Part shown: in pieces, positions 8,316 to 24,714 of the stretch
How the letters are laid out: the number at the start of each line of letters is the position of its first letter
Numbering within the stretch: the first letter of the stretch is position 1
DNA from: a virus
Lineage: Duplodnaviria > Caudoviricetes
Direction: 5' to 3' (one strand)
Length of the DNA: 24,770 bases
IMG/VR virus record: IMGVR_UViG_3300029995_000039
Coordinates: 1-24,770 of that record
Position numbers and translations under genes: made by a program
The notes under the pieces: model-generated
Seen by the model: the letters and a program-made list of their open reading frames with translations, nothing else
Database searches by the model: none
Told to the model about the DNA's origin: nothing

Positions 8316-8325
8316 AATAATAATC

Positions 8326-8351
8326 TTCGCGTAAAAAACAGTTTCTATAAT
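8326..8351 (+). promoter_or_regulatory. Conserved cassette-opening promoter-like element, copy 1
   Basis: TTCGCG TAAAA AACA GTTTC TATAAT. Confidence 0.85.
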
Positions 8352-8386
8352 GAAACTATTGATAAAGTTTACGAAGGAGAATAAGT

Positions 8387-8482
8387 ATGAAGAAATTTAT
8401 TAAAAGAAATTGGGTGTTTTTAGTAACAGAGTTTTTATTAATATTAGCAATTTGTATATTGTTACCATTAGCATTTAAGTAG
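8387..8482 (+). CDS. 31-aa single-pass membrane peptide (cassette 1 cargo, absent from the ORF track)
   Basis: MKKFIKRNWVFLVTEFLLILAICILLPLAFK, with a GAAGGAG RBS, between element 1 and hairpin 1. Confidence 0.75.
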   Translation: MKKFIKRNWVFLVTEFLLILAICILLPLAFK

Positions 8483-8488
8483 TTAATT

Positions 8489-8512
8489 GAGAGAGCTTAG
8501 GCTCTTTCTTTT
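8489..8512 (+). terminator. Intrinsic terminator-like hairpin closing cassette 1
   Basis: GAGAGAGC-TTAG-GCTCTTTC-TTTT. Confidence 0.8.
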
Positions 8513-8560
8513 GCAATTATGCCAAATTCAAAATGGTAATAAAAAGGTGGTGATACATAT

Positions 8561-8827
8561 ATGCGTGATGAACTATGTGGTGAAATACACAAGCAAGTCG
8601 ATGAAAGACTTATTCAAGCCAACAAACGATTAACAGAGCATGACATAGTACTCGATCAACAGAATGGAAGAATAAACAAACTAGAAGTACGTGGTGCCAC
8701 TATAGACACAAAAGTAGAAAATCTATGTGATGATATTAAGACACTAGTATCTACTATACGGTGGGCCGGAATATTAGCAATTACTACATTATTAGGATTT
8801 TTTATTTGGTATATCCAACATATCTAA
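8561..8827 (+). CDS. XhlA-family membrane-associated lysis protein
   Basis: Coiled-coil region (RLTEHD...RINKLE...KVENLC) followed by one C-terminal TM helix (WAGILAITTLLGFFIWYIQ). Lies ahead of the holin and endolysin. Confidence 0.75.
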   Translation: MRDELCGEIHKQVDERLIQANKRLTEHDIVLDQQNGRINKLEVRGATIDTKVENLCDDIKTLVSTIRWAGILAITTLLGFFIWYIQHI

Positions 8828-8852
8828 ACAAAATAAAAGGAGGATTTAAATC

Positions 8853-9221
8853 ATGAATTTAAACGAAATTTTAACAGTATTAATCAGTTACGGAACAATT
8901 GCCGTAACAGTAATAGGCTTATTGGCCTTTGCTACGAGTGTGATAACTCAGGTAACTAAAAGTTGGGGTTTTCTAGATAAGATTCCAACAGCATTGCAGG
9001 CGTACGTTGTTAGTTTAGTACTAACAGTGCTAACTGTACTTATTTATATACAGTTTAGTAAAATGGCATTTGTATGGTATTATATTGTCGGGGCAATTAT
9101 ATTAAGTTTCTTTGTGTCATTTGTAACAGTAAATGGCTGGTCTCAATTACGAGAAATTTGGCATAGATTTAATGATACTAATAGTACGAATACAACTGAT
9201 AAATCAGGAGGTGCACAATAA
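8853..9221 (+). CDS. Putative holin (three TM segments)
   Basis: 122 aa with three hydrophobic segments and a polar tail. AAGGAGG RBS, and TAATG coupling to the endolysin. Confidence 0.75.
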   Translation: MNLNEILTVLISYGTIAVTVIGLLAFATSVITQVTKSWGFLDKIPTALQAYVVSLVLTVLTVLIYIQFSKMAFVWYYIVGAIILSFFVSFVTVNGWSQLREIWHRFNDTNSTNTTDKSGGAQ

Positions 9222-10288
9222 TGAGTAACAGTGGTTTGGTAACATATACAAAACTATCACCAAATTGTGATAGACCTAGAAGCAAAAAATTGTCAAAGAT
9301 TACAATTCATCATATGGCTGGAAATCTTTCAGTAGAAGCCCTTGGTGATATCTTTGCTAGAGAAACAAGACAAGCTAGTGCTAATTATGGTATTGATTCT
9401 AATGGATCAGTAGCATTATACGTTGATGAAGTAAATAGAGCATGGACTAGTGGTAATCCAGGTAATGATAATCAAGCGGTTACTGTTGAAGTGGCTAATG
9501 ATGGTGGAGAAGAAACTGGTTGGCATGTAAGTGATATTGCATTAGCAAAACTTATAGATTGGTGTGTTGATGTTTGTCAACGTAATGGTATACCTGCGCT
9601 AAACTTTACAGGTGATGCTACAGGTAATCTCACAATGCATAGTTATTTTCAAAATACAGCATGCCCTGGTCCATATCTTGGATCTCAGTTTCCATATATT
9701 GCAATAGAGGTTAATCGCAGATTAGAAATTTTAAAAACTAATCCAGAAGCCGTAATAGTGCCAAACACTGATGTTGAAGTATCCGCACCAGTACCAGAGG
9801 AGGTGATCCAAGAATCTGCACCTGTACCAGAACTTGTATTAACAGTAAACATTGGTGGATCTGAACAATGGCTTGGATCAGTATATGGTTCACAGTCTGA
9901 TATTATGAATGTTGATTTTGGTTATGGTGGATTGTTAGGTAGAACTATTGAGGGGTTATGCATATCTTTAGAAAATGCAGGATTCTCAGTTAATTATGGA
10001 GTACATATAGCTGGCAGAACTTTACCAGGTGTAAACTCTAATAATGCAGATATGTCAAATAATGATACTGGGTATGCTGGTAAGTTAGGATCTGAGATCG
10101 ATGGCGTACAGATGAGCCTAGAAGGAACAGACGAATTTGATATTGAGTATCAAGTAATCCTTTTATCTGGTAGAATATTACCATCAGTGTTTGGTAAAGA
10201 TGCTAATTGGGATGATGATAATTGTGGATATGCCGGTAGATTTGGACAACATATTCAAGGAATAACAGCAAGAATAGTTAGAAGATAA
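9221..10288 (+). CDS. Endolysin: Amidase_2-type N-acetylmuramoyl-L-alanine amidase with three C-terminal ChW-like repeats
   Basis: ITIHHMAG, ASANYGI, RAWTSG, VEVAN and H...TACPG motifs. Pro/Glu linker with SAPVPE twice. Three repeats ending YGGLLGRTIEGL, GYAGKLGSEIDGV and GYAGRFGQHIQGI. Confidence 0.9.
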   Translation: MSNSGLVTYTKLSPNCDRPRSKKLSKITIHHMAGNLSVEALGDIFARETRQASANYGIDSNGSVALYVDEVNRAWTSGNPGNDNQAVTVEVANDGGEETGWHVSDIALAKLIDWCVDVCQRNGIPALNFTGDATGNLTMHSYFQNTACPGPYLGSQFPYIAIEVNRRLEILKTNPEAVIVPNTDVEVSAPVPEEVIQESAPVPELVLTVNIGGSEQWLGSVYGSQSDIMNVDFGYGGLLGRTIEGLCISLENAGFSVNYGVHIAGRTLPGVNSNNADMSNNDTGYAGKLGSEIDGVQMSLEGTDEFDIEYQVILLSGRILPSVFGKDANWDDDNCGYAGRFGQHIQGITARIVRR

Positions 10289-10301
10289 TTATATCAAGTA
10301 C

Positions 10302-10327
10302 CCCAGGAAACGGTAATACGCCCTGGG
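10302..10327 (+). other. GC-rich hairpin after the endolysin (possible terminator or regulatory site)
   Basis: CCCAGG-14 nt-CCTGGG, with only a weak U-tract downstream. Confidence 0.45.
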
Positions 10328-10360
10328 ATATTTATTAAAAACATTTCATTTTAATTTTTC

Positions 10361-10386
10361 TTCGCGTTAGTAACAGTCCCTATAAT
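10361..10386 (+). promoter_or_regulatory. Conserved cassette-opening element, copy 2
   Basis: TTCGCG TTAGT AACA GTCCC TATAAT. Confidence 0.85.
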
Positions 10387-10418
10387 GAGACTAAATTAGA
10401 AAATAAGGAGTATTTAAA

Positions 10419-10574
10419 ATGATGATAATGATATGTAGAATATGTATTGCAATATTAATTATATATATTTGTAATATGTATATATATAAATTAGAGCAAC
10501 GTAGATTGGCTATCGATATTAAAATTTTAATCAAGAGAAATAAAATAATTAAGAGTTTGATTGAGAAAGCTTAG
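10419..10574 (+). CDS. 51-aa protein with hydrophobic N-terminus (cassette 2 cargo, absent from the ORF track)
   Basis: MMIMICRICIAILIIYICNMYIYKLEQRRLAIDIKILIKRNKIIKSLIEKA, with a TAAGGAG RBS. The TAG stop lies in the hairpin loop. Confidence 0.7.
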   Translation: MMIMICRICIAILIIYICNMYIYKLEQRRLAIDIKILIKRNKIIKSLIEKA

Positions 10575-10586
10575 GCTTTTTCTTTT
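10563..10586 (+). terminator. Terminator-like hairpin closing cassette 2
   Basis: GAGAAAGC-TTAG-GCTTTTTC-TTTT. Confidence 0.8.
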
Positions 10587-10589
10587 CTA

Positions 10590-10615
10590 TTCGCGTAAAA
10601 AACAATTGCTATAAT
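10590..10615 (+). promoter_or_regulatory. Conserved cassette-opening element, copy 3
   Basis: TTCGCG TAAAA AACA ATTGC TATAAT. Confidence 0.85.
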
Positions 10616-10649
10616 GAAACTAAGAACTTAATTTAAAGGAGAATATATT

Positions 10650-10817
10650 ATGGAAAAAGATAATGATATAACTGAAGTAACAACAAATTTTGTATGGCAT
10701 TTATGTGAAAAACATGTATATAATAAAAAAATTAAAAAAGGTTTAAAAGACGGAAGTATTGAGATAATTGATGGTGAGTTCTACGAGAAAGTAGAAAACA
10801 TCGTTGAGGAAGCTTAG
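10650..10817 (+). CDS. 55-aa soluble hypothetical protein (cassette 3 cargo, absent from the ORF track)
   Basis: MEKDNDITEVTTNFVWHLCEKHVYNKKIKKGLKDGSIEIIDGEFYEKVENIVEEA, with an AAAGGAG RBS. The TAG stop lies in the hairpin loop. Confidence 0.75.
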   Translation: MEKDNDITEVTTNFVWHLCEKHVYNKKIKKGLKDGSIEIIDGEFYEKVENIVEEA

Positions 10818-10829
10818 GCTTCTTCTTTT
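10806..10829 (+). terminator. Terminator-like hairpin closing cassette 3
   Basis: GAGGAAGC-TTAG-GCTTCTTC-TTTT. Confidence 0.8.
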
Positions 10830-10832
10830 GTC

Positions 10833-10858
10833 TTCGCGTAAAAAACAGTTGCTATAAT
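10833..10858 (+). promoter_or_regulatory. Conserved cassette-opening element, copy 4
   Basis: TTCGCG TAAAA AACA GTTGC TATAAT. Confidence 0.85.
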
Positions 10859-10860
10859 GA

Positions 10861-10954
10861 GAGAAGAAAAGGAAAAGGCAACACGAATAGGCGTATAATA
10901 CATAATGTATACTACCACGTAAATAGACCTATGTTCTTCTCTTTTATTTTTTTT
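10861..10954 (+). ncRNA. Candidate structured small RNA (cassette 4, no RBS-led ORF)
   Basis: Nested pairings GAGAAGAA(10861-68)/TTCTTCTC(10934-41), ATAGG(10887-91)/CCTAT(10928-32) and GTATA(10893-97)/TATAC(10908-12), followed by a long T-tract. Confidence 0.5.
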
Positions 10955-11023
10955 AATATCAATATGTAAATTTTCCCGAGTGGGATTTTTTGATAAAAAC
11001 ATTTTAAAAAGGAGGAGCAAATT

Positions 11024-11236
11024 ATGATAATAACATTAGCACTTATCGCTGGATTGGCTATAGGTAGTTTTGTAACTAATATTATAATTACAAAACGAAC
11101 ATCATACGGTACATTAGACATTGATGTAAATGGCGAAGAAGCAGACAAATGGATAATTAAATTTAATAAGTTTGATAATCTAAAGAACAAAAAATATATA
11201 CAATTAAAAATTAATCGAATCGCTTTAAAAAAATAA
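11024..11236 (+). CDS. Small protein with N-terminal TM helix
   Basis: AAGGAGGAG RBS and hydrophobic N-terminus MIITLALIAGLAIGSFVTNIII. Confidence 0.8.
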   Translation: MIITLALIAGLAIGSFVTNIIITKRTSYGTLDIDVNGEEADKWIIKFNKFDNLKNKKYIQLKINRIALKK

Positions 11237-11262
11237 CTCGCGGCAATAACATTCCGTATTAT
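11237..11262 (+). promoter_or_regulatory. Conserved cassette-opening element, copy 5
   Basis: CTCGCG GCAAT AACA TTCCG TATTAT, starting immediately after the upstream TAA. Confidence 0.8.
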
Positions 11263-11293
11263 GAGTAAATAAAATTTAAGGAGGAATTAAGAA

Positions 11294-11695
11294 ATGATTA
11301 AAACTTTATTAGATGAGGAACTAACTGATGAATTCAATACATTGAAAAACATGACATTGGGAACCAAAGAGTATGAAGTAACAGTAAACACTGTAACTAA
11401 ATTAGTACAAACGAGGGTTGAACTGGATCGATATGAGACTGAACGAATGGATAAGTTAAATCTGCAAGAAGAGCAAGCAAAGCAAAAGGAGCAAGAATTA
11501 AACTTACAAAAAGAACAGGCAAAAAACGAGAAAGTACACAATACTTCACAGACACTAATAATGATAGGAACAGCATTGTTAACTGCAGTGATTACAATTT
11601 GGGGAACAAATAAAACGTTAAAATTTGAAGAAGAAGGAACGGTAACAACCTCAGCAGGTAAAAGTTTTTTAGGACGATTAATACCTAAAAAGTAA
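11294..11695 (+). CDS. Coiled-coil protein with a C-proximal TM helix (cassette 5 cargo)
   Basis: AAGGAGG RBS. Short duplication KLNLQEEQAK/ELNLQKEQAK and TM segment TLIMIGTALLTAVITIWG. Confidence 0.85.
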   Translation: MIKTLLDEELTDEFNTLKNMTLGTKEYEVTVNTVTKLVQTRVELDRYETERMDKLNLQEEQAKQKEQELNLQKEQAKNEKVHNTSQTLIMIGTALLTAVITIWGTNKTLKFEEEGTVTTSAGKSFLGRLIPKK

Positions 11696-11706
11696 ATGAA
11701 AAACTC

Positions 11707-11746
11707 AAGATAGAGCACTAAGTAAAAACTTAGACTCTTTCTTTTT
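11707..11746 (+). terminator. Terminator-like hairpin closing cassette 5
   Basis: AAGATAGAGCACTAAGT-AAAA-ACTTAGACTCTTTCTT-TTT. Confidence 0.75.
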
Positions 11747-11767
11747 GTTATGAAAGGAGAATTCAAA

Positions 11768-12175
11768 ATGGATAAAAAACAAATATTACATGTCAATGAG
11801 TATATGTCTACAATACAAAACATACGAGATGAATTATACTTAATGGGTACTGGCGATGAAATAAGTACAGAACTAATAGTAAATATTTTTATTCCTTTAT
11901 TAAGTCGTGGATATAGTATATTATTAATATATGATGCTGTAAAAAAATTGTTATCATCTGGACTAATGTATGATATTAGAGTAGTATTACCAGAAGAAAA
12001 AATGCCGATTCCGTATGATATGAGTTTTGAAGAATGTGAGGATTATACATTAGTTGATAATTCTCCACCAACACGGTGTCCAATATTAAAAACTAATATT
12101 CACTATTTTAAGCATCAAGATTTCATATCGAGAGCAAATAATAAACCAATATATTTGGCAAGAAGAATATGTTAA
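11768..12175 (+). CDS. Hypothetical protein
   Basis: GAAAGGAG RBS favours the ATG at 11768 over 11750. Confidence 0.75.
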   Translation: MDKKQILHVNEYMSTIQNIRDELYLMGTGDEISTELIVNIFIPLLSRGYSILLIYDAVKKLLSSGLMYDIRVVLPEEKMPIPYDMSFEECEDYTLVDNSPPTRCPILKTNIHYFKHQDFISRANNKPIYLARRIC

Positions 12176-12209
12176 TGTAACCACTGACAATAGCTAGGAA
12201 GGAGATATT

Positions 12210-12800
12210 ATGTATTTAAGAAGTAGATATTGGCTATTTTGCGAACGCGCACTATTCATGGCGTTATGCATATTTATGTCATATATTATAACACCGAACC
12301 AACAAATACAAGCACAAGAAATACCAATTCAAGAAGTAGAATACATATCATACAACAGTTCCGCACTAATATCAATTACGTTTACACCTATGCATAACGT
12401 TATTCAAGTAGAATCTAATATTATTGAGGATGATATTCAAGTACCAACATCTAGATTTTCAGAAGAAGATATTAAATTATTAGAACGGGTTACCATGAGT
12501 GAATCTGGTAATCAACCATTGGAGTGTCAAATTGCAGTAGCTCAAACCATTATAAATAGACTTGATAGTGGGCGATATGGAACTACAATATATGATATTG
12601 TATATGCAAATAACCAATACAGTACAAGAAATAATGGTGCGCCAAACGATAGTGTGTTGGCTGCAGTACAAGAGGCAATATATAACCCACCATACAATAC
12701 AAATATGGTATACTTTAGAGAAAATCATTATCATACATTTGCAGTAGATTATGAAAAATTTGGTGTTTTATATTTTAGTTTATATCCTGAGGAGGGTTAA
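12210..12800 (+). CDS. Cell wall hydrolase, SleB/Hydrolase_2 family, with N-terminal hydrophobic anchor
   Basis: LLERVTMSESGNQPLECQIAVAQTIINR...IYDIVYANNQYS...VYFR matches the Hydrolase_2 pattern, including the catalytic Glu. GAAGGAG RBS. Confidence 0.85.
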   Translation: MYLRSRYWLFCERALFMALCIFMSYIITPNQQIQAQEIPIQEVEYISYNSSALISITFTPMHNVIQVESNIIEDDIQVPTSRFSEEDIKLLERVTMSESGNQPLECQIAVAQTIINRLDSGRYGTTIYDIVYANNQYSTRNNGAPNDSVLAAVQEAIYNPPYNTNMVYFRENHYHTFAVDYEKFGVLYFSLYPEEG

Positions 12801-12801
12801 T

Positions 12802-13155
12802 ATGAAAAGAGAAGTGAATGAAATTACAAAAATAGTTCTGTTATCAGATACTGGAAAAGAAGCAGATACTTTATTTAGAATGATGATGGCAATAGTTCAA
12901 GAACGACCAAAGAATGTATTATATAGTGCAAAAAGAAAGTATATACAAGCGAATACATTTCATATTTGTATTATGCCAAATGATCAACATAAATATTGTG
13001 GATTACGGGCCGATCTTACATATCCATATACAAAAGATCTAATGGGTAAATCAAAACATACAGAACAAGAATGCACAATGGAACATATTATTGAATTTAT
13101 ACGGAAAGAATTGTGGCATAGTTCTACAAATTCGCGTATCAAACAGTCCCTTTAA
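12802..13155 (+). CDS. Hypothetical protein whose C-terminus is encoded by element copy 6
   Basis: GAGGAGGG RBS favours the ATG at 12802. The protein ends NSRIKQSL*. Confidence 0.75.
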   Translation: MKREVNEITKIVLLSDTGKEADTLFRMMMAIVQERPKNVLYSAKRKYIQANTFHICIMPNDQHKYCGLRADLTYPYTKDLMGKSKHTEQECTMEHIIEFIRKELWHSSTNSRIKQSL

Positions 13156-13156
13156 T
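13131..13156 (+). promoter_or_regulatory. Conserved cassette-opening element, copy 6
   Basis: TTCGCG TATCA AACA GTCCC TTTAAT. Confidence 0.8.
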
Positions 13157-13170
13157 GAGAAATAGTATAT

Positions 13171-13210
13171 GGGTTACTGATGGAATTACATCAATGACTC
13201 TTTACTTTTT
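13171..13210 (+). terminator. Hairpin plus U-tract directly after element 6 (ORF-less cassette or short RNA)
   Basis: GGGTTACTGATG-GAATTA-CATCAATGACTC-TTTACTTTTT. Confidence 0.65.
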
Positions 13211-13246
13211 GAATATAAAAATACACTATAAAAGGAGAGAACCGTC

Positions 13247-13405
13247 ATGAAAATTAAGAAAATTACAATGACACAAGTGCTGAGTTTATTAGCAACAGCA
13301 CTAACACTAACAAGTATGATAATTGGTAGTGAGGTGCATGAAAGAGAAATGCAAGAACTTAAAGAAGAAATAAAAACAGAACTCAATAACGAAAAGGAGA
13401 ATTAA
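13247..13405 (+). CDS. 52-aa membrane-anchored protein (absent from the ORF track)
   Basis: MKIKKITMTQVLSLLATALTLTSMIIGSEVHEREMQELKEEIKTELNNEKEN, with an AAAGGAG RBS. Abuts the next gene. Confidence 0.75.
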   Translation: MKIKKITMTQVLSLLATALTLTSMIIGSEVHEREMQELKEEIKTELNNEKEN

Positions 13406-13407
13406 AA

Positions 13408-14241
13408 ATGAAAATTGGAAATTTTAATGGTATTATAAAATTAGTTCAAAGCATTGCAACAAAACATGGACCTGAAATATTAATTGGATTAGGTATTGCT
13501 GGTATGGGTACTACGGTAGTACTATCAGTAAAGGCAACACCAAAAGCATTGTTAATTATCGATGATGCTATAAATGAAAAAAATGATATTGAGTTAGAGA
13601 TAGCAAATGAAAACGAAGATTATATTTATAACCCTATTGATAAGTTAACCGTTATGGAAACCACAAAAGTTTGTTGGAAATGTTATCTACCAGCCGTTAT
13701 AACAGGAGTAACATCAGTAGTATGCATCATCGGTGGTACTACAATGAATTTGAGAAGGAATGCAGCATTAGCAACAGCGTATAAAATATCAGAAACAGCA
13801 ATTAAAGAACTACAAGAGTATAAAGATAAAGTTGTAGATACTATTGGTGAGGAAAAGAACCAGGAAATCGAGAATAAGATTAATAAAGAACATTTAGATC
13901 GTGCTGCTGTTGATCTTGATAGTACGACTATATCTGGAACTGGCCCAGTATTATATTTTGAAAAGATGGGTGGGCAATGGTTTAAATCTGATAAAGAGAC
14001 GGTTAGAGAAGTAATAAATAACCTAAATAATACTATGAATACTGAGATGTATGTATCACTCAATGATTTCTATGCAGATATGGGCTTAGCAAATACTATT
14101 GCTGGCGATTCATTAGGATGGAATACAAATCAAGGAATGATTGAGCCAAGATTTAGTTCAATGGTTACTAAAACAGGAATACCAGTAGTAGTATTAACTA
14201 CAAGAATAGAACCAAGAGTTGATTACGGTAAATTATATTAA
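13408..14241 (+). CDS. DUF6353-like phage membrane protein, paralog 1
   Basis: KHGPEILIGLGIAG...ATPKA, YLPAV...RRNAALATAY, EYKDKV, VSLNDFY...LGW. Family name is from recall. Confidence 0.75.
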   Translation: MKIGNFNGIIKLVQSIATKHGPEILIGLGIAGMGTTVVLSVKATPKALLIIDDAINEKNDIELEIANENEDYIYNPIDKLTVMETTKVCWKCYLPAVITGVTSVVCIIGGTTMNLRRNAALATAYKISETAIKELQEYKDKVVDTIGEEKNQEIENKINKEHLDRAAVDLDSTTISGTGPVLYFEKMGGQWFKSDKETVREVINNLNNTMNTEMYVSLNDFYADMGLANTIAGDSLGWNTNQGMIEPRFSSMVTKTGIPVVVLTTRIEPRVDYGKLY

Positions 14242-14246
14242 GTATA

Positions 14247-14272
14247 TTCGCGGTAAAAACAGTTCGTATTAT
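14247..14272 (+). promoter_or_regulatory. Conserved cassette-opening element, copy 7
   Basis: TTCGCG GTAAA AACA GTTCG TATTAT. Confidence 0.85.
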
Positions 14273-14317
14273 GAGATATAATAACATAAAATATTAGAAA
14301 ATAAGGAGGAATTAATT

Positions 14318-14572
14318 ATGAGTAAGATTGATGATGTAGAAGTTGTAAACGAAAATGGAGAGGTGGTAATCACTGAAACTAAACTTGATAAAGTTAAAGC
14401 GTTTGTCAAAAAGAATAAGAAGAAAATTATTGCAGGAGCAGTAGTGATCGGACTTGTACTTGTTGGCTGCGCTATTAGCAAAGGATCAAGTGAAGAAGAG
14501 GAATTATCCATTGAAGATTTAGATTATGATGAAACAGATGATCAGAATTCAAATGACAATACTGAGATTTAA
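14318..14572 (+). CDS. 84-aa single-pass membrane protein with acidic tail (cassette 7 cargo)
   Basis: AAGGGAGG RBS. Basic stretch KKNKKK, then IIAGAVVIGLVLVGC, then an Asp/Glu-rich tail. Confidence 0.85.
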   Translation: MSKIDDVEVVNENGEVVITETKLDKVKAFVKKNKKKIIAGAVVIGLVLVGCAISKGSSEEEELSIEDLDYDETDDQNSNDNTEI

Positions 14573-14589
14573 TAGTATAAGTTATGTAC

Positions 14590-14627
14590 ATCAGAGGACG
14601 AGTGTTTAATACACTTTTCCTTTTGAT
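14590..14627 (+). terminator. Hairpin closing cassette 7 (divergent in sequence)
   Basis: ATCAGAGGACGAGTGT-TTAAT-ACACTTTTCCTTTTGAT. Confidence 0.6.
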
Positions 14628-14645
14628 CTTATGGGAGGATATTAT

Positions 14646-14879
14646 ATGACAAAATATAAATATAAAGGTCCGGTAACACTTTTTGGACGATGCATTGCTG
14701 AGAGTTGGAAAGCCGAAACATCCGCTCCGACATTTAAAAAGGCAATGAGTAATTTCAAATATCAATATAAGCAATATGCAAAAATAACTGGCAATATAGA
14801 ATTACCTGGAGTAGTATCTATATTAGATCAGACGGAGGTATATAATGGAGACAATAAAACCAAACTCGCACAAGTATAA
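14646..14879 (+). CDS. Small hypothetical protein
   Basis: GGGAGG RBS favours the ATG at 14646 (MTKYKYKGPV...). Overlaps the next gene. Confidence 0.7.
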   Translation: MTKYKYKGPVTLFGRCIAESWKAETSAPTFKKAMSNFKYQYKQYAKITGNIELPGVVSILDQTEVYNGDNKTKLAQV

Positions 14880-15492: not shown

Positions 15493-15512
15493 AACGAATA
15501 GGGAGAATCAAA

Positions 15513-16421: not shown

Positions 16422-16442
16422 AACCTTTGAAAGGGGTATATA

Positions 16443-17651: not shown

Positions 17652-17665
17652 GAGGAGGGTATCAC

Positions 17666-20600
17666 ATGGATTTCGTAAAGATTTTAAAAAGATATCCAAA
17701 ACAAGGTGTCGTTGAAATATATCCAAAATTTATTATCGGCAAACATAATGACATAATGATCCGAGGCGGAGACTTCTACGCTATTTGGGTCGAGGAACGT
17801 GGATTGTGGTCCACAGATGAAGATGATGTAAAAATGTTAATTGATAATGAATTAGATGATTACGTCAAAGAACATGTTAAAAATTATGAAGAATCATCAA
17901 TAAATATACAATATATGTGGGATGCTGATTCTGGAACAGTTGATAAATGGCATAAATATTGTCAGAAACAACAGAGAGATTCGTTTCACATATTAGATGA
18001 GTCTCTTGTATTTGCAAATGACAAAGCTAAGAAACGAGACTATGCAAGTAAACGTTTATCATATCCATTGGAAGATTGTGCTACTTCGGCATATGATTTA
18101 TTGATGTCAACACTATATTTAGAAGAAGATAGACATAAATTAGAATGGGCAATTGGTGCAGTTGTTACTGGTGATTCTAAAAAAATACAAAAGTTTTTAG
18201 TATTATATGGTTCACAAGGTTCTGGTAAATCTACAGTATTGAATATAATACAAATGTTATTTGATGGGTATTATTCTGCATTTGATGCTAAGGTATTAGG
18301 ATCTAGCAGTAATGCATTTGCATTGGAAGCATTTAAAACAAATCCATTAATAGCAATACAACATGATGGTGATTTATCTCATATTGAGGATAATACTAGA
18401 CTTAATAGTTTAGTCTCACATGAGATGATGACCATTAATGAAAAGTTTAAAAGTGCATACGATAGTAAATTTAAGACATTCTTATTTATGGGTACAAATA
18501 AACCAGTAAAGATTACAGATGCTAAATCTGGACTTATACGACGTTTGATTGATGTAGCACCATCTGGCAATAAACTTGCAACTAAAGTATATAATGATTC
18601 AATGAAACAAGTTAGTTTTGAACTTGGTGGTATTGCTTGGCATTGTAGAGAAGTATATTTAGAGAATCCTGGAGCATACGATAATTATATACCAACAGCA
18701 ATGCTTAGTGCATCAAATGATTTCTATAATTATGTTATAGATTGCTATCATATATTTGTACGCGATAATGGTGTAACATTAAAAAGTGCTTGGGAACTAT
18801 ATAAAACCTATTGCGATGATGCAAAAGTATTATACCCATTACCAAGACGAGCATTCCAAGAAGAAATTAAGAATTATTTTAAATCTTTTGAAGATAGGTT
18901 TGCCTTGGATGATGGCACCAGAGTACGTAGTTACTATTCTGGTTTTCTTACTGAGAAATTCGAAACTGGATTACCAGTAACGGATAAGAAAAAAGAACAA
19001 GAATCAATAAACAATCCAAACGTTACTGAAAAAGGTTGGCTAATGCTAAGTGAACAAAAATCTTTATTTGATTCTGAGTGGTCAGACTGTTATGCACAAT
19101 ATGCAACTACAAATGAAAAAGAGATACCACTTAAAGCATGGGATAAAGTTACAACAAAATTATCTAGTATTGACACTTCTAAATTGCATTATGTTAGAGT
19201 TCCAATAAATCATATTGTAATTGATTTTGATATACCAGATGCCGATGGTAATAAAAACTATGAATTAAATGCTATGGCCGCATCAACATGGCCAAAAACG
19301 TATGCTGAGGTTAGTAAAGGTGGTGCTGGTATACATCTTCATTATTTGTATAATGGGGACCCAGAGAAGCTCAGCAGAGTGTTTGAAGAGCATATAGAAG
19401 TTAAAGTATTCAATGGTAATAGTTCACTTAGACGTAAATTATCAAAGTGTAACGACTTGCCTATAGCACAAATTAGTTCTGGGCTACCGTTGAAAGGAGA
19501 GAAAATGATAAACAAAGATATACTAGCAACTGAACGAGGTTTACGAACAACAATTAAAAAATGTTTAAATAAAGAAGTTCATGCTGGAACAAAACCGTCA
19601 ATGGATTTTATTAATAAAATATTACAAGAAGCAAAAAGTCAAGGTATTAGTTACGATGTATCAAATATGAAAAATGAAATAGTAGCATTTGCAGCACAAA
19701 GTAGTCATCAAAGTGAGTATTGCTTAAATCTTATATCAACAATACCATTTAAATCAGATAATGAGATTGATAATTCTAGTATTGATGATGTGGATAAACC
19801 AATGATAATATTTGATATTGAGGTATTTCCAAATTTATTTTATGTTGGTTGGAAAGTTGAGGGTGATGGTAAACCTATTGCCCACATGTTTAATCCAACA
19901 TCAGAGCAAATACAAGAATTATTAAATATGAAATTAGTAGGATTCAACTGTCGTAAATATGATAATCATTTGTTATATGCTAGAGTAATGGGATATGATA
20001 ATATGCAACTGTATAAATTATCAAAAAAGATTATTGATAATGGTATTCTTACTGCTGGATTCTTAGAAGCTTATAATTTATCATATACTGATGTTTATGA
20101 TTTTGCATCGTCTGGTAATAAAAAAAGTTTGAAAAAACTTGAGATAGAGATGGGAATACATCATCAAGAATTAGGACTACCATGGGATGAACCTGTTCCA
20201 GAAGAGTTATGGCCTAAAGTTGCTGATTATTGCGATAATGATGTTACTGCTACTGAATCGGCATTTCATTACTTATCTGCTGATTGGACAGCAAGACAAA
20301 TATTGGCTGATTTAGCTAATATGACAGTAAATGATACTACAAATACATTAACAACTAGGATCATATTTGGTAAGGATAGAAAACCACAAGGACAGTTTAA
20401 TTATAGAAATATGGCTGAACCAGTTTATGATATGGATGATGATACACGAAAATTCTTAGCTGAGGCTTGTCCGGAAATGATGGCGGGGTTACATGGTAAT
20501 GCTCTTAGTATACTTCCATATTTTCCAGGTTATAAATATTCATTTGGTAAATCAACATATAAAGAATTTAATGAAAACAATCCAAATCCAGAGCGTAGAG

Positions 20601-21859
20601 TTCTTGGTGAGGGTGGATTAGTAGTTTCAGAACCTGGAATATGGGGTAACGATGCATTGTTAGATATTGTATCGCAACATCCTCATAGTGGTATTGCTGA
20701 GTGTATATTTGGAGTTAAATTTACAAAAGCATTCAGAGAAATAGTTGAGGGTAGAGTTAGTATCAAACATAAGGCTTGGGCAGATGTTAATGATATGCTT
20801 GATGGTAAATTAACACCATATATTCAAAAAGTTATCAATGGTGAGATGACTGCTAAGCAATTAGCCAATGCATTAAAGACTGCAATTAATTCAGTGTACG
20901 GACTTACTAGTGCTTCGTTTGATAACCCATTCAAAGATAAACGTAACGTAGATAATATCATGGCTAAGCGTGGAGCATTGTTCATGGTAGATTTACGAGA
21001 AGAGGTTATGAAACGTGGATTTACAGTAGCTCATATTAAGACAGATTCAATTAAGATACCTGATGCTACTCCAGAAATTATTAAGTTTGTAATGGATTTT
21101 GGATTGCTGTATGGATATACATTTGAACATGAGGCAACTTATGAACGTATGTGCCTAGTAAATAAGGCTGTGTATATTGCAAAATATGCTACACCAGAAC
21201 AATGTATGAAGTTATATGGATACGTTCCAGATGATTGTAATGAACATGGTGGAGAATGGACAGCTACTGGTACACAGTTTGCTATTCCTTACGTGTTTAA
21301 AACATTATTTAGTAAAGAGGATATCGTATTTGAAGATCTTTGCGAAACCTTTGCTGTGTCAAAAGGTGATCTATATTTGGATATGAATGAGAATCTCCAA
21401 GATGTAACGTTACTTGAGAAGCAGCGTGATAAGATGCTTAAGAAAATGGACATTGATGATAGGCTAAAAGATAAATCTTACCCAGAATATGAAGCGTTAG
21501 AAGAGGATATAGCCGATGGTCATGATTTGAAGTTTGTAGGTAGAGTTGGACAATTCTGTACTGTTAAAGATGGTTGTAATGGTGGTGTATTATACCGTGT
21601 GTACAATGGTAAGAATAACAATGCATCTGGTGCTTCTGGATATAGATGGTTAGAATCAGAAACAGTTAAGAATAACAATATGGAAAAAGATATTAATAAA
21701 GATTTCTATAACAAGTTGGTCGATGATGCCATTTCAACAATTAATACATATGGAGACTTTGAATGGTTTGCGTCCAATGATCCATACATCCCAAAACCTA
21801 AAGTAGATATGTATATTCCAGATGATGCTGACGAAGAAGAAGGATTACCATTTAATTAG
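17666..21859 (+). CDS. Fused replication protein: SF3 (D5-like) helicase, AEP-type primase, 3'-5' exonuclease and family B-like DNA polymerase
   Basis: Walker A YGSQGSGKS and FMGTNK (SF3). VIDFDI and SKGGAGIHLHY (AEP DxD and His motifs). FDIEVF, GFNCRKYD and YCDND (Exo I-III). LDIVSQHP, KTAINSVYG and HIKTDS (PolB A-C like). Confidence 0.88.
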   Translation: MDFVKILKRYPKQGVVEIYPKFIIGKHNDIMIRGGDFYAIWVEERGLWSTDEDDVKMLIDNELDDYVKEHVKNYEESSINIQYMWDADSGTVDKWHKYCQKQQRDSFHILDESLVFANDKAKKRDYASKRLSYPLEDCATSAYDLLMSTLYLEEDRHKLEWAIGAVVTGDSKKIQKFLVLYGSQGSGKSTVLNIIQMLFDGYYSAFDAKVLGSSSNAFALEAFKTNPLIAIQHDGDLSHIEDNTRLNSLVSHEMMTINEKFKSAYDSKFKTFLFMGTNKPVKITDAKSGLIRRLIDVAPSGNKLATKVYNDSMKQVSFELGGIAWHCREVYLENPGAYDNYIPTAMLSASNDFYNYVIDCYHIFVRDNGVTLKSAWELYKTYCDDAKVLYPLPRRAFQEEIKNYFKSFEDRFALDDGTRVRSYYSGFLTEKFETGLPVTDKKKEQESINNPNVTEKGWLMLSEQKSLFDSEWSDCYAQYATTNEKEIPLKAWDKVTTKLSSIDTSKLHYVRVPINHIVIDFDIPDADGNKNYELNAMAASTWPKTYAEVSKGGAGIHLHYLYNGDPEKLSRVFEEHIEVKVFNGNSSLRRKLSKCNDLPIAQISSGLPLKGEKMINKDILATERGLRTTIKKCLNKEVHAGTKPSMDFINKILQEAKSQGISYDVSNMKNEIVAFAAQSSHQSEYCLNLISTIPFKSDNEIDNSSIDDVDKPMIIFDIEVFPNLFYVGWKVEGDGKPIAHMFNPTSEQIQELLNMKLVGFNCRKYDNHLLYARVMGYDNMQLYKLSKKIIDNGILTAGFLEAYNLSYTDVYDFASSGNKKSLKKLEIEMGIHHQELGLPWDEPVPEELWPKVADYCDNDVTATESAFHYLSADWTARQILADLANMTVNDTTNTLTTRIIFGKDRKPQGQFNYRNMAEPVYDMDDDTRKFLAEACPEMMAGLHGNALSILPYFPGYKYSFGKSTYKEFNENNPNPERRVLGEGGLVVSEPGIWGNDALLDIVSQHPHSGIAECIFGVKFTKAFREIVEGRVSIKHKAWADVNDMLDGKLTPYIQKVINGEMTAKQLANALKTAINSVYGLTSASFDNPFKDKRNVDNIMAKRGALFMVDLREEVMKRGFTVAHIKTDSIKIPDATPEIIKFVMDFGLLYGYTFEHEATYERMCLVNKAVYIAKYATPEQCMKLYGYVPDDCNEHGGEWTATGTQFAIPYVFKTLFSKEDIVFEDLCETFAVSKGDLYLDMNENLQDVTLLEKQRDKMLKKMDIDDRLKDKSYPEYEALEEDIADGHDLKFVGRVGQFCTVKDGCNGGVLYRVYNGKNNNASGASGYRWLESETVKNNNMEKDINKDFYNKLVDDAISTINTYGDFEWFASNDPYIPKPKVDMYIPDDADEEEGLPFN

Positions 21860-21885
21860 TTCGCGTAATAAACACATCCTATAAT
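21860..21885 (+). promoter_or_regulatory. Conserved cassette-opening element, copy 8
   Basis: TTCGCG TAATA AACA CATCC TATAAT, starting immediately after the polymerase TAG. Confidence 0.85.
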
Positions 21886-21902
21886 GAAAGGATGGTGATA
21901 TT

Positions 21903-22082
21903 ATGAATATTATTAAAAGAATATCAAACAATCTAAAATACGCAAAATATCGTAAACTTAGAGATAAGGCATTATATGAAATGAAAAAACATGAATATGA
22001 TACTGATAAAACTGAGTGGATACATTGGGCGAGTATTGGAATGGAAAGTATAAAAAAATGTAGAAATATACCATTACACTAA
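21903..22082 (+). CDS. 59-aa basic hypothetical protein (cassette 8 cargo, absent from the ORF track)
   Basis: MNIIKRISNNLKYAKYRKLRDKALYEMKKHEYDTDKTEWIHWASIGMESIKKCRNIPLH, with an AAGGATGGTGAT RBS-like leader. Confidence 0.7.
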   Translation: MNIIKRISNNLKYAKYRKLRDKALYEMKKHEYDTDKTEWIHWASIGMESIKKCRNIPLH

Positions 22083-22091
22083 AAGATATAT

Positions 22092-22120
22092 GGGGTCTAA
22101 GAAATTGGACTCTTTTCTTT
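22092..22120 (+). terminator. Terminator-like hairpin closing cassette 8
   Basis: GGGGTCTAA-GAAA-TTGGACTCT-TTTCTTT. Confidence 0.75.
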
Positions 22121-22156
22121 CTAAAAAATAAAACAAATTGAAGGAGATTTAAAATT

Positions 22157-22675
22157 ATGATGAATTTAACATTTGCACCAAGAGGTATTTTACAAATTGA
22201 TGGAGCTAGAATTATCTTTAGAAATTTTAAAGGTGAAGGTAGCACGTACAATCGTGAGGGCGATAGAAATTTCGCTATTGTTATCGAAACGGAAGAACAG
22301 TATGACGCATTATTAAAAGACCTTAATAAGTTTGGCGATTGCTGGAATGTAAAAAAGAAGGCTCCTAAAGAAGAGGGTGATGAACCATTTATGTATTTAT
22401 CGGTAAAAGCAAAGTTTAATGAAAATGGACCAGCAATATATCTAGTTTCAGGTAAGGCAAGAACTAAATTAACTGAGCATAGTATAGCAATTCTTGATGA
22501 CATTGATATTGCATCTGTTAGTTTAGATATACGTCCTTACGATGCTGAAGTTAGTGGTAAGACCTACAGAGCGGCATATCTAAAGGCAATGGAGATTACA
22601 CAGGAAGTAGATAGATTTGCAGATCCATCAGATATGGAAGATGCTATCAATGAACTTGAGGATGATGCAGAATAA
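22157..22675 (+). CDS. Putative phage single-stranded DNA-binding protein
   Basis: ARIIFRNFKG...GDRNF and DIRPY...AYLK segments with an acidic C-terminal tail. Lies between the polymerase and the helicase. Confidence 0.65.
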   Translation: MMNLTFAPRGILQIDGARIIFRNFKGEGSTYNREGDRNFAIVIETEEQYDALLKDLNKFGDCWNVKKKAPKEEGDEPFMYLSVKAKFNENGPAIYLVSGKARTKLTEHSIAILDDIDIASVSLDIRPYDAEVSGKTYRAAYLKAMEITQEVDRFADPSDMEDAINELEDDAE

Positions 22676-22677
22676 AC

Positions 22678-22703
22678 TTCGCGGATTAAACAGTCCATAT
22701 TAT
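22678..22703 (+). promoter_or_regulatory. Conserved cassette-opening element, copy 9
   Basis: TTCGCG GATTA AACA GTCCA TATTAT. Confidence 0.85.
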
Positions 22704-22735
22704 GAGACTAAATAAAAATTTGAAGGAGTAGTAAT

Positions 22736-23053
22736 ATGAATGAAAAGATTAAGAACAAAGCAAAGGAAGTAAAAAACTGGGCAGTTGATCATAAACATGA
22801 AATAGTCATGATAGTAATCGGTATTAGTATTGGTGCAGTTAGTGCTTCATATTTAAAAAAGGATAATATAAAAGGATTTGATCCAGACCTTATTAGCTTT
22901 ATAGATAGTGTGAAGCGCATGAAACCTACGAACGGATATGATATAGTTGATTCTAGGGGCATGACATTTAATGATGTACGTGATGAAATGGTACTAGCAC
23001 ATACACAAGATGTAGTTGTGGTTGGTGCATTAGTATACACAAAGAACAAATAA
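22736..23053 (+). CDS. 105-aa membrane protein (cassette 9 cargo)
   Basis: GAAGGAG RBS and TM segment IVMIVIGISIGAVSASYL. Confidence 0.85.
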   Translation: MNEKIKNKAKEVKNWAVDHKHEIVMIVIGISIGAVSASYLKKDNIKGFDPDLISFIDSVKRMKPTNGYDIVDSRGMTFNDVRDEMVLAHTQDVVVVGALVYTKNK

Positions 23054-23070
23054 TTTATAGTTACAATTAT

Positions 23071-23110
23071 AGAGGGTCTAGGTTTAAAACTTAGACTCTT
23101 TATTTTATTT
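23071..23110 (+). terminator. Terminator-like hairpin closing cassette 9
   Basis: AGAGGGTCTAGG-TTTAAAA-CTTAGACTCTTT-ATTTTATTT. Confidence 0.75.
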
Positions 23111-23126
23111 ATGTGGAGGTGATATA

Positions 23127-24413
23127 ATGAGTAAAGAACAAACTCCTTTTCTACGAGATTATCAACTTGATGCCGTGAACAAAGGCACTAATGGATGCAT
23201 ATTTAATGGTGGTGTTGGTAGCGGAAAATCTAGAACAGGACTATACTATTACTTCAAACAAAATGGTGGGCGTCTACTAGATTATGAGAATTATACGCCA
23301 ATGCATAATCCACCACAAGATTTATATATAATAACAACTGCTATGAAACGTGATAGTTGTGAATGGGATGGTGAACTAGCTAATTTTTATATATCTACCG
23401 ATCCAACTATAAATCAATATGATCAAAAAATAGTAATAGACTCATGGAATAATATTAAGAAATATATAACTATCAGAAATGCATTCTTTGTATTTGATGA
23501 AGATAAAGTAACTGGATCTGGTGCATGGGTTAAAGCATTTTGGAATATAGCAAAGAATAACAATTGGATTATATTATCAGCCACACCTGGTGATACCTGG
23601 ACGGATTATATGCCAGTATTTGTAGCAAATGGATTCTACAAGAATAAAACAGAATTTGAACGAGAACATGCAGTATTTAAACGATATTCGAAATGGCCTC
23701 AGATAGAGAAATATATTAATACTGGAAGGCTTATTAGATTACGAGATAAAATATTAATAAATATGGATTTTGAAAGATTGACAATACCACATCATATGAA
23801 TGTATATACTGATTACGATGTAGAGACTTATAAAAAAGTAATGAAGACTAGATGGAATCCGTATAAAGATGAACCTATAGCACAAGCATCAGTACTGTGT
23901 GGAATTCTTAGACAAATTGTAAATTCCGATGAGTCAAGAGTTGATAAAATGCTTGATATTCTAGAGACAAAAAATACAGCTATTATATTCTACAATTTTA
24001 ATTATGAATTAGATATATTGCATAATGTATTTTGGAATGCTGGCAATGATACAGAAGCCTGTGATTATGATGCTAATAATAGATTTGAAGTTGCAGAATG
24101 GAATGGTCATATGCATCAGGAAATACCAAGAGGTAATAAGTGGGTATATTTGGTACAGTATACTGCTGGTTGTGAAGGCTGGAATTGTATCACTACGGAC
24201 ACTATAATATTCTTTTCGCAGAACTATAGCTATAAGGTTGTAACGCAAGCTGCTGGGCGTATAGACCGCTTAAACAGTCCTTATATAGATCTGTACTACT
24301 ATCATTTGAAGAGTAGAGCTAGTATTGATATTGCTATTAGTAGAGCATTAACTAGTAAGAAAGAATTCAATGCTATGAAATGGTGTAACTCGCGTAGTAA
24401 ACAACTCCTATAA
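23127..24413 (+). CDS. Superfamily 2 DNA helicase
   Basis: LRDYQ, GGVGSGKS, FVFDE, LSATPG, EGWN and QAAGRIDR motifs. Confidence 0.88.
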   Translation: MSKEQTPFLRDYQLDAVNKGTNGCIFNGGVGSGKSRTGLYYYFKQNGGRLLDYENYTPMHNPPQDLYIITTAMKRDSCEWDGELANFYISTDPTINQYDQKIVIDSWNNIKKYITIRNAFFVFDEDKVTGSGAWVKAFWNIAKNNNWIILSATPGDTWTDYMPVFVANGFYKNKTEFEREHAVFKRYSKWPQIEKYINTGRLIRLRDKILINMDFERLTIPHHMNVYTDYDVETYKKVMKTRWNPYKDEPIAQASVLCGILRQIVNSDESRVDKMLDILETKNTAIIFYNFNYELDILHNVFWNAGNDTEACDYDANNRFEVAEWNGHMHQEIPRGNKWVYLVQYTAGCEGWNCITTDTIIFFSQNYSYKVVTQAAGRIDRLNSPYIDLYYYHLKSRASIDIAISRALTSKKEFNAMKWCNSRSKQLL

Positions 24414-24414
24414 T
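24389..24414 (+). promoter_or_regulatory. Conserved cassette-opening element, copy 10 (inside the helicase 3' end)
   Basis: CTCGCG TAGTA AACA ACTCC TATAAT. Confidence 0.85.
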
Positions 24415-24434
24415 AGAATATATAAGGAGGATTT

Positions 24435-24668
24435 ATGATGAGTAAAAATGATGAATTTGAAATTGGGGACATTGAAAAAGTTAAGGTCAATGGATTGAAT
24501 ATGTATAAACTTGGACACGAGTTATGTCTAACAAAAGGTGACGCGATAAAACGCGTAAATGAGTTAAGTAATAATTGGAATGCTAAGAATATATCATTTG
24601 ATTCTGGATGCGACGTAATAAAAATGATTTGTGATGGAAAAGTTTTACACGGAATAAGATTAGGATAA
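24435..24668 (+). CDS. 77-aa hypothetical protein (cassette 10 cargo)
   Basis: TAAGGAGG RBS, between element 10 and hairpin 10. Confidence 0.8.
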   Translation: MMSKNDEFEIGDIEKVKVNGLNMYKLGHELCLTKGDAIKRVNELSNNWNAKNISFDSGCDVIKMICDGKVLHGIRLG

Positions 24669-24683
24669 GAATGTATATTTACA

Positions 24684-24714
24684 AAAGAGTTTAAGAAATT
24701 AGACTCTTTCTTTT
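24684..24714 (+). terminator. Terminator-like hairpin closing cassette 10
   Basis: AAAGAGTTTAA-GAAA-TTAGACTCTTT-CTTTT. Confidence 0.75.

Follow-up and report, generated by a model that had tools for sequence, protein, structure and literature searches.

Why should one phage genome carry ten small units, scattered among its core genes, that all begin with the same short sequence? The question is raised by a stretch of 24,770 nucleotides (IMG/VR record IMGVR_UViG_3300029995_000039; this whole stretch is called the window below), in which a 27-nt element stands at the head of ten units, each consisting of a leader, a single protein or RNA cargo and, in most cases, a terminator-like hairpin. An earlier sequence-only reading had taken them for either a mobile, integron-like capture system or a co-regulated set of accessory genes. 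The answer that we favour, and consider reasonably probable as a whole, is that the element is a family-wide promoter for the phage's own RNA polymerase (RNAP), and that it heads terminator-closed units which are shuffled by homologous recombination.

The element has the consensus YTCGCG-N6-ACA-N5-T(A/T)T(A/T)AT-R and occurs in ten copies in the window, all on the coding strand and all at the positions that had been reported for them (Table 1). The word TCGCG is found ten times on the plus strand, each time within an element, and a leave-one-out position weight matrix (PWM) gives the ten copies 19.3-41.4 bits, against at most 1.7 bits for other plus-strand sites and at most 1.1 bits on the minus strand. 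Elements 6 and 10 sit in the 3' end of the upstream open reading frame (ORF), and the TAA of the hexamer is the stop codon of that ORF. A sister record (G001; 57,227 bp), 99.996% identical across the whole window, contains 14 elements, each of them on the coding strand (2+3 matches for the control of the looser pattern used), with none in its terminase-to-tail block.

Eight of the units encode one protein of 31 to 133 aa each and two (units 4 and 6) have no ORF, as had been proposed, and the idea of a reusable format of promoter, cargo and terminator is supported, the promoter being its predicted part. The 3' ends are less uniform than the postulated common boundary motif would have it, and that claim falls: units 1-3 end in a GAGCTTAGGCTC type of terminator, units 5, 8, 9 and 10 in AG(R)GTCTAAG...TTAGACTC, and units 4, 6 and 7 in unrelated hairpins. 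Local folding of six hairpins (units 1, 5, 6, 7, 8 and 10) gave z scores of -2.5 to -5.0, and a terminator scan picked up those of units 2, 3, 8 and 9. Unit 4 lacks a local terminator hairpin and is closed instead by a 10-bp stem between its own two ends, 5' and 3' (z only -1.6). For cargos 2 and 3 the stop codon is part of the terminator hairpin (10563-10582 and 10806-10825), so that ORF end and terminator form one module. In the ribosome-binding site (RBS) of unit 2, base 10411 is T in the window and probably an assembly error, because G001 and 4/4 sequencing runs have G, which restores AGGAGG. As for what the cargos do, Pfam and PHROG returned only uncharacterised or sub-threshold matches, for units 5 and 7, and with a PADLOC match for 0/8 cargos the suggested anti-defence or exclusion roles are unsupported. 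Note also that G001 encodes, outside any unit, a protein with an Acb2/Tad1 hairpin domain, which belongs to an anti-defence family (L077:11805-12260, minus strand; PF24729, E 2.7e-18).

The gene order of the window runs from tape measure and tail through holin-like genes, endolysin and two DUF6353 genes to a fused primase-polymerase, a single-stranded DNA-binding (SSB) protein and a helicase. The primase-polymerase is 55% identical to that of Faecalibacterium phage FP_oengus and about 46-47% identical to those of Arthrobacter, Gordonia and Microbacterium phages. Judged by its fused primase-polymerase, DUF6353 genes, helicase, block of VRR-NUC, Cas4 and RNAP-like genes and placement of all genes on one strand, the phage is a member of the supergroup of FP_oengus, the Lactococcus 1706-like phages and actinobacteriophage clusters AM, AU, AW, BI, CC, DJ and EL, described in the available part of a preprint (10.1101/842583). 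A G+C content of 32% and the type of Shine-Dalgarno (SD) sequence point to a Firmicute host. DNA of this phage was found in peat metagenomes, and the 24 sequencing runs listed include no RNA run.

The element is spread over this whole group. A pattern search found it in 32 of 35 related IMG/VR records, on one strand in each, the control giving 1 match in all, and an iterated profile returned 322 forward matches and 1 reverse match in 25 stretches of 22 records. The conserved columns are CGC (3-5), ACA (13-15, with C invariant), T-w-T-w-A-T (21-26, w being A or T) and G at position 27 (252 of 278 unique sites). The profile also matches FP_oengus, Giantsbane (Arthrobacter), Spectropatronm (Streptomyces) and Vardy (Gordonia), with 0 reverse matches above 9 bits; by these matches the element is family-wide and common to phages of Firmicutes and Actinobacteria. 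According to a heuristic, 272 of the 322 copies head an SD sequence plus an ORF (median cargo 70 aa; 133 families, 83 of them singletons), and some of the 50 that do not are missed short ORFs.

How, then, would such an element act? We propose a promoter with its +1 at about position 27, the three boxes (CGC at 3-5, ACA at 13-15, TwTwAT-G at 21-27) lying one helical turn apart. An ungapped helix of at least 8 bp starts at position 27 or 28 in 16 of 27 hand-picked ORF-free units versus 19 of 237 coding units. In the leaders that precede the RNAP operon, the first paired base of the stem falls at 26-32 in 27 of 36 cases and never upstream of 26 (these are 36 of 41 unique leaders, the remaining 5 having no U-tract), and an SD-like word begins at positions 27-32 in 92 of 272 coding units. 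All this suggests an RNA 5' end at position 27, directly after the hexamer.

The candidate enzyme is encoded outside the window, in the sister record, and has homologs in 250 phage records. A D(F/Y)DGD motif is present in 78/78 RNAP ORFs (79 loci), and a model built from 31 sequences (pLDDT 74, pTM 0.57) matches the folds of QDE-1 (E 4.5e-7), P23-45 gp64 (1.2e-4) and P74 gp62 (3.1e-4). With its DxDGD motif and double-psi barrels the family enzyme is predicted to be a single-subunit two-barrel RNAP. It falls with YonO and P23-45 gp64/gp96 into the QDE-1/gp64 fold class and, unlike the members of that class compared here, bears both N- and C-terminal helix-turn-helix (HTH) domains; HTH/Sigma70_r4_2 matches occur in 31/31 members, in the first of them below the curated cut-off. 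Sequence searches of the PDB were uninformative with the single protein and gave HTH-only matches with a profile. An enzyme of this supergroup had earlier been proposed as an RNAP, with no promoter assigned to it in the available part of that preprint (10.1101/842583), and upstream of the early transcription starts of P23-45 stand repeated phage-specific motifs that its RNAPs use, according to the accessible part of another study (PMC10770324). The earlier suggestion of a co-regulated set is supported, this protein being a candidate for its dedicated transcription enzyme, and that the element is a promoter read by the phage's predicted two-barrel RNAP, through the HTH/sigma4-like domains, seems to us the likelier view of its function. 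Since the SSB gene, the helicase gene and the RNAP operon lie downstream of units with no other element found, termination would have to be leaky in units upstream of core genes, whichever polymerase reads the element.

The VRR-NUC/Cas4/RNAP operon begins with a conserved element, some 0.9-1.2 kb before the RNAP gene, that is followed immediately by a hairpin and U-tract (L152-L230; for example at FP_oengus 27682 and Giantsbane 52727), and this arrangement is possibly an autoregulatory attenuator.

Do the units also move? Twelve pairs of close relatives were aligned and breakpoints counted in six non-overlapping pairs. Of the 136 alignment ends in the six, 25 are located between -40 and +40 relative to an element, where 3.7 were expected, an approximately 7-fold excess. 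Gain, loss and relocation of whole units at the element separate relatives about 95-97% identical, the clean cases being a 271-bp indel between G012 and G011, a 262-bp indel between G004 and G005 and a translocation between G016 and G017. The element that is retained is a chimera, and the switch point varies from case to case (about 1-5, 2-7, 13-16 and 19-31; indel pairs F35+F36, F37 and F16, partly out of register, were excluded from these positions). The claim that units interrupt the cluster of polymerase, SSB and helicase genes agrees with the relatives, where the unit 8 site between polymerase and SSB is empty (<80 nt) in 21 of 53 and the unit 9 site between SSB and helicase in 28 of 56; removing unit 9 from the window does leave the predicted tight junction (SSB stop, 6 nt, GGAGG, helicase ATG). 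Inter-unit joints in contigs of four runs are backed on their shorter side by 18-24 nt at 85% similarity and apparently stem from repeats. We regard units that are shuffled homologously between element copies as very likely. Exchange would proceed by short-homology recombination across the terminator-promoter junction, perhaps by way of excised circles as for the PeSL cassettes discussed below; the SSB/annealing protein and the Cas4-like nuclease are candidates for helping it, and the first seeding of an empty core junction would need a different, illegitimate event.

Several points weigh against this combined account, which is built on sequence and predicted structure, its transcriptional and biochemical side being extrapolated from them. 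Any U-tract pairs readily with the purine-rich positions 27-32, the ORF-free units were chosen by eye, and the hairpin with U-tract found after the first ORF in 224 of 272 units was called by a permissive rule that had no control. Fold matches of the RNAP have low TM-scores (0.24-0.39). The RNAP operon, too, has an element at its head (within 2.5 kb) with its immediate hairpin, in 63 of 78 loci, so that the RNAP would need a virion copy or another first source, and comparison of its N-terminus with Pfam for a packaging mark gave 0/6. The late-gene side holds 1 element in 175,794 bp, and no late-operon promoter was identified upstream of the first late gene; YonO of SPbeta transcribes late genes, according to the available part of its description (PMC5467207), and by this precedent the family RNAP could be a late enzyme. 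Lactococcus phage P162 (L151) has an RNAP homolog together with a truncated element, reduced to the ACA box and hexamer with no CGC box, at the head of its small-gene array. With regard to movement, the 136 alignment ends are not mutually independent, and 111 of them have no element nearby. Moreover, mobility is documented in relatives but not in the ten units of the window itself: a DNA pattern scan (7 loci) and a unit-5 scan (4 loci) returned near-identical copies or distant phages and, L078-L080 being set aside, no close relative of this phage whose units differ.

The alternative that survives best keeps the units and their shuffling and makes the element an early or middle promoter of the host RNAP, leaving the late operon to the phage RNAP in the manner of YonO. 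It would be a sigma-A -10 element plus CGC/ACA boxes, possibly served by a phage activator as in the MotA-box promoters of T4, where host RNAP works with such an activator. Sigma-A -10 elements depend on an A at -11, and transcription starts 6-8 nt downstream of them. Most window copies do read TATAAT or TATTAT, and 31 of 32 sites in actinobacterial phages and 12 of 14 in G001 keep the A at '-11', which suits host sigma-A and adds to the points above; the related motif of Vardy has been read as a sigma-70 -10 (PMC9671010), and the RNAP operon starts with an element whereas late genes do not. In the family as a whole, however, the '-11' column holds A in 48% and T in 44%, TAnnnT occurs in 128 of 278 unique sites, and 0/14 copies of the temperate FP_oengus, where the variant CTTTAT occurs, have the A. 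No -35 lies at 16-18 nt from the hexamer, and the ten elements are absent among 60 listed sites of the 104 from a sigma-70 scan, a total that, with 114 expected by shuffling, is in itself uninformative. The RNA stems and SD-like words beginning at 27-32 lie upstream of a sigma-A +1, and a single motif is common to phages of two phyla. A host promoter is on this evidence unlikely, if still to be reckoned with.

A second alternative grants co-expression and denies exchange: the units would be a fixed, vertically inherited regulon of accessory genes, and the nearby indels incidental. Not all units move, given that the cargo family of unit 5 heads units in 16 of 22 records and that of unit 7 in 11 of 22, and elements are fused into the upstream ORFs in units 6 and 10; 19 of 73 loci have an element where the helicase ends, and most alignment ends lie elsewhere. 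The clean unit indels, the chimeric elements, the translocation and the excess of ends at elements, all from pairs 95-97% identical, argue against it, as does the same pattern reported for cluster AU (available part of 10.1101/2020.01.10.891226). A regulon of this purely fixed kind is improbable and, for the family, largely refuted.

Integron-like capture, in which the element would be a site-specific recombination site for a phage or host recombinase, fares worse still and strikes us as very improbable. It could draw on the common boundary sequence, the 83 singletons among 133 cargo families, the breakpoints at the element and the integrase of some members (G012, FP_oengus). Yet crossovers vary along the element and the adjacent terminator, the 3' end is not a shared boundary, and there is no PF00589 match in G001, G004, G005 or G010, G012 carrying one; G004 and G005, both complete, still differ by a whole unit. 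No recombinase was detected among 59 ORFs scanned from G001 or among the 29 ORFs scanned from the window, the latter as the sequence-only reading had stated. Nor is there a linked IntI or an attC-type fold with fixed crossover: the element forms neither an inverted repeat nor an attC-like hairpin, and a promoter-like head stands before every single unit, where integron cassettes are promoterless. Because crossovers vary and indels separate records that have no integrase match, shuffling of the PeSL type, and not an integron, is indicated; of the original choice between mobile cassette and regulon both sides hold for one and the same element, and the integron-like version is lost. Least credible of all is an operator- or stoperator-like binding site (for repression, packaging or replication) in place of a promoter, since, although the element is an asymmetric, strictly oriented multi-copy site and several relatives have hexamer-less CGC-N7-(A/G)CA boxes inside the probable cos region, its copies nearly always head an SD plus ORF or a structured RNA plus U-tract and almost never lie within genes, and the ORF-free units would otherwise have no promoter.

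The preferred reading, a phage promoter heading exchangeable units, has partial precedents. Phage morons are self-contained promoter-gene-terminator additions between core genes, and to our knowledge they normally have no common promoter sequence, whereas all units here share one that is promoter-like. Units 8 and 9, with their own gene and terminator, a predicted promoter and empty junctions in relatives, have the make-up of morons. Closer are the PeSL cassettes of the T4-like phages RB49/phi1, PST and nt-1, in which, as far as the available parts of two papers go (PMC2839356; PMC4122927), repeated terminator-promoter junctions bracket small ORFans and homologous recombination between copies, with variable crossover and no dedicated recombinase invoked, leads to indels, replacements and shuffling. 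The units here likewise have a composite of stem-loop and predicted promoter and, in relatives, indels with variable crossover. PeSL promoters, belonging to T4-like myoviruses, follow the host sigma-70 consensus (-35/-10), however, whereas the element has no -35 and often no A at '-11' and probably serves a phage RNAP; unlike PeSLs, our units also lie within the replication operon and carry RNAs; and PeSL mini-circles were shown in those papers, whereas the units are known from assembled contigs. By their manner of working the units are analogs of PeSLs, and no sequence homology is claimed.

Two pieces of the family element have been described before. A 32-bp repeat of Arthrobacter cluster AU, with deletions and translocations of repeat-flanked genes, was reported for Giantsbane, and in the available part of this preprint (10.1101/2020.01.10.891226), which cites lambdoid boundary sequences, the repeat is a recombination boundary within one cluster, unlinked to the repeats of other clusters; the words 'promoter' and 'terminator' are absent from its text. 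We regard the repeat as the same element by homology, the family PWM finding it before genes 37-41 and elsewhere. A 50-bp motif of Vardy (Gordonia cluster DJ) is likewise the same element; it contains TATAAT and is repeated between genes, with terminators close by and numerous small membrane-protein genes. PMC9671010 reads it as a host sigma-70 promoter, has no shuffling analysis and counts 5 copies, where our scan of one stretch gives 9 above 12 bits. The available parts of PMC5513430, PMC7302621 and PMC13313380 mention the small membrane-protein arrays, with no repeat in these clusters, and PMC5559632 says nothing on cluster DJ. Our literature search, which took in few subscription papers and no bioRxiv supplements, found no paper that unites the AU and DJ repeats or assigns them to the family RNAP; an earlier description is possible. 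The related Rhodococcus phages were reportedly described by Summer in 2011, and that paper may already cover these repeats. The cassette-and-shuffle logic is known, then, and what is probably new is the family-wide identity of the element, its likely link to the phage RNAP and a tRNA-mimic cargo.

This last cargo deserves a description of its own. Where the window has unit 6, many relatives carry a structured RNA, tRNA-shaped or other, as the final unit ahead of the first DUF6353 gene, and several ORF-free RNAs of relatives match tRNA in Rfam (RF00005). They are not tRNA genes: the anticodon place has a loop of 3-5 nt or otherwise of the wrong size (replacement loops TTCG, GAAA, GCAA, TTAA and TAT), and the acceptor stem runs into the U-tract. 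Phages of Firmicutes and of Actinobacteria alike carry these tRNA-shaped RNAs as units headed by an element, FP_oengus and Vardy included. The D and T arms covary: among 10 copies picked by hand, both bases have changed in 11 of 19 pairs (0/500 shuffles), a count inflated by relatedness and by the structure-guided choice of copies. The RNAs swap too, because G012 holds a different RNA at the slot common to G008, G010, G011 and G014. The window's own two RNAs (units 4 and 6) are not tRNA-like and have no Rfam match, positions 8300-14700 giving 7 weak Rfam matches with none near the gathering score; low-stringency ARAGORN calls were dropped as noise. The tRNA-shaped RNAs are possibly decoys, and our literature search found no paper on phage tRNA mimics of this anticodon-loop-less kind. 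Antisense targets for four ORF-free RNAs of the sister genome amounted to short chance-level matches, save for the internal repeat of one. That RNA, an ORF-free transcript candidate near L077:16000-16100 (minus strand) in G001, bears a 23-nt direct repeat, has a similar counterpart in G019 (L137) and gave no Rfam match at the gathering score. Repeat-type decoy RNAs are a known class, which it resembles.

Table 1. Coordinates of elements, cargos, 3' ends and related features (window positions unless a locus is named)
Feature	Position	Strand	Remarks
Element 1	8326..8352	+	profile match; 27-nt predicted promoter, position 27 = putative +1
Unit 1 cargo	8387..8482	+	31 aa; one hydrophobic stretch; no Pfam/PHROG/PADLOC match
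Unit 1 terminator-like hairpin + U-tract	8489..8512	+	GAGCTTAGGCTC type; z -3.0
Element 2	10361..10387	+	profile match
Unit 2 cargo	10419..10574	+	51 aa; hydrophobic N-terminus; stop codon within terminator hairpin
Unit 2 terminator-like hairpin + U-tract	10563..10586	+	terminator scan
Element 3	10590..10616	+	directly after terminator 2: composite terminator-promoter junction
Unit 3 cargo	10650..10817	+	55 aa; soluble; no family match
Unit 3 terminator-like hairpin + U-tract	10806..10829	+	terminator scan
Element 4	10833..10859	+	profile match
Unit 4 putative small RNA, ~90 nt	10859..10954	+	10-bp 5'/3' stem from element position 27, then U-tract; no Rfam match
Element 5	11237..11263	+	profile match
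Unit 5 cargo	11294..11695	+	133 aa; phrog_15866; heads unit in 16/22 records (self included)
Unit 5 terminator-like hairpin + U-tract	11707..11746	+	z -2.5
Element 6	13131..13157	+	overlaps 3' end of ORF 12802-13155; hexamer TAA = ORF stop
Unit 6 putative short hairpin RNA/attenuator	13157..13210	+	z -3.8; last element before first DUF6353 gene
Element 7	14247..14273	+	profile match
Unit 7 cargo	14318..14572	+	84 aa; single hydrophobic helix, acidic tail; single-linkage family in 11/22 records (self included)
Unit 7 terminator-like hairpin	14590..14627	+	z -5.0
Element 8	21860..21886	+	just past primase-polymerase stop; SD-like GAAAGGA starts at position 27
Unit 8 cargo	21903..22082	+	59 aa; no family match
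Unit 8 terminator-like hairpin + U-tract	22092..22120	+	folding + terminator scan
SSB / single-strand-annealing-like core gene	22157..22675	+	PF24083; phrog_4787; candidate recombination helper
Element 9	22678..22704	+	profile match
Unit 9 cargo	22736..23053	+	105 aa; one hydrophobic stretch; no family match
Unit 9 terminator-like hairpin (16 bp) + U-tract	23069..23110	+	terminator scan
Element 10	24389..24415	+	overlaps 3' end of helicase (23127-24413); stop 24411-24413 within hexamer
Unit 10 cargo	24435..24668	+	77 aa; no family match
Unit 10 terminator-like hairpin + U-tract	24684..24714	+	z -2.5
Predicted RNAP gene	G001 L077:406-3372	-	988 aa, ADFDGD; outside window
tRNA-shaped RNA	L089:2292-2372		D + T arms intact, no CCA
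tRNA-shaped RNA	L110:14662-14747		D + T arms intact, no CCA
tRNA-shaped RNA	L097:7938-8016		D + T arms intact, no CCA
tRNA-shaped RNA	L139:7298-7386	-	D + T arms intact, no CCA
tRNA-shaped RNA	L137:15666-15752	-	D + T arms intact, no CCA
tRNA-shaped RNA	L149:2934-3015		D + T arms intact, no CCA
tRNA-shaped RNA	L232:7549-7632		D + T arms intact, no CCA

Some further features of these genomes were noted in passing. A further cell-wall hydrolase (PF07486), the second of the window, is encoded at 12210-12800; it has a hydrophobic stretch at its N-terminus and is placed among genes of the early side, apart from the lysis cassette. Just upstream of the RNAP operon, G001 has an ORF-free region with GTGGGC/GCCCAC and CGGTCAAAA repeats (near L077:4900-5150), and a similar region is found in Giantsbane near 52400; it is a possible replication origin. 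After the RNAP operon (L154, L180, L199, L213 and others), an intergenic G-run/C-run inverted repeat with a CATCGC-rich core is conserved and is probably cos. The leader of the first late gene holds a conserved CTCCTTTC word, resembling an anti-SD sequence, within a long stem.

What would the finding mean for these phages? A wider reading, which we put forward tentatively and hold for possible, is that the supergroup as a whole carries a self-contained platform for expression and exchange, made of a sigma-less RNAP, a three-box promoter that doubles as recombination boundary and an anticodon-less tRNA-mimic cargo. If such a platform exists, a captured gene would be expressed at once, in any host, and would be silent in the lysogen, while the tRNA mimics would be an unnamed class that could decoy host defences which sense or cleave tRNA. 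The proposed assignment, if true, names the promoter of an uncharacterised single-subunit RNAP present in 250 phage records, many of them culturable SEA-PHAGES isolates; the specificity of this RNAP would be directly testable and could yield a compact, host-independent transcription system, and P162, with its CGC-less element and its own RNAP, would offer a natural test case for the co-variation of enzyme and promoter. The repeats of clusters AU and DJ would be unified as one element, and shuffling of the PeSL type would extend beyond T4-like phages. The element would also flag hundreds of accessory products, proteins and RNAs alike (22 records yield 133 protein families), as a set for screening for anti-defence and host-takeover functions, and would give a reason for the arrays of small membrane-protein genes in the supergroup and for its moves between host phyla.

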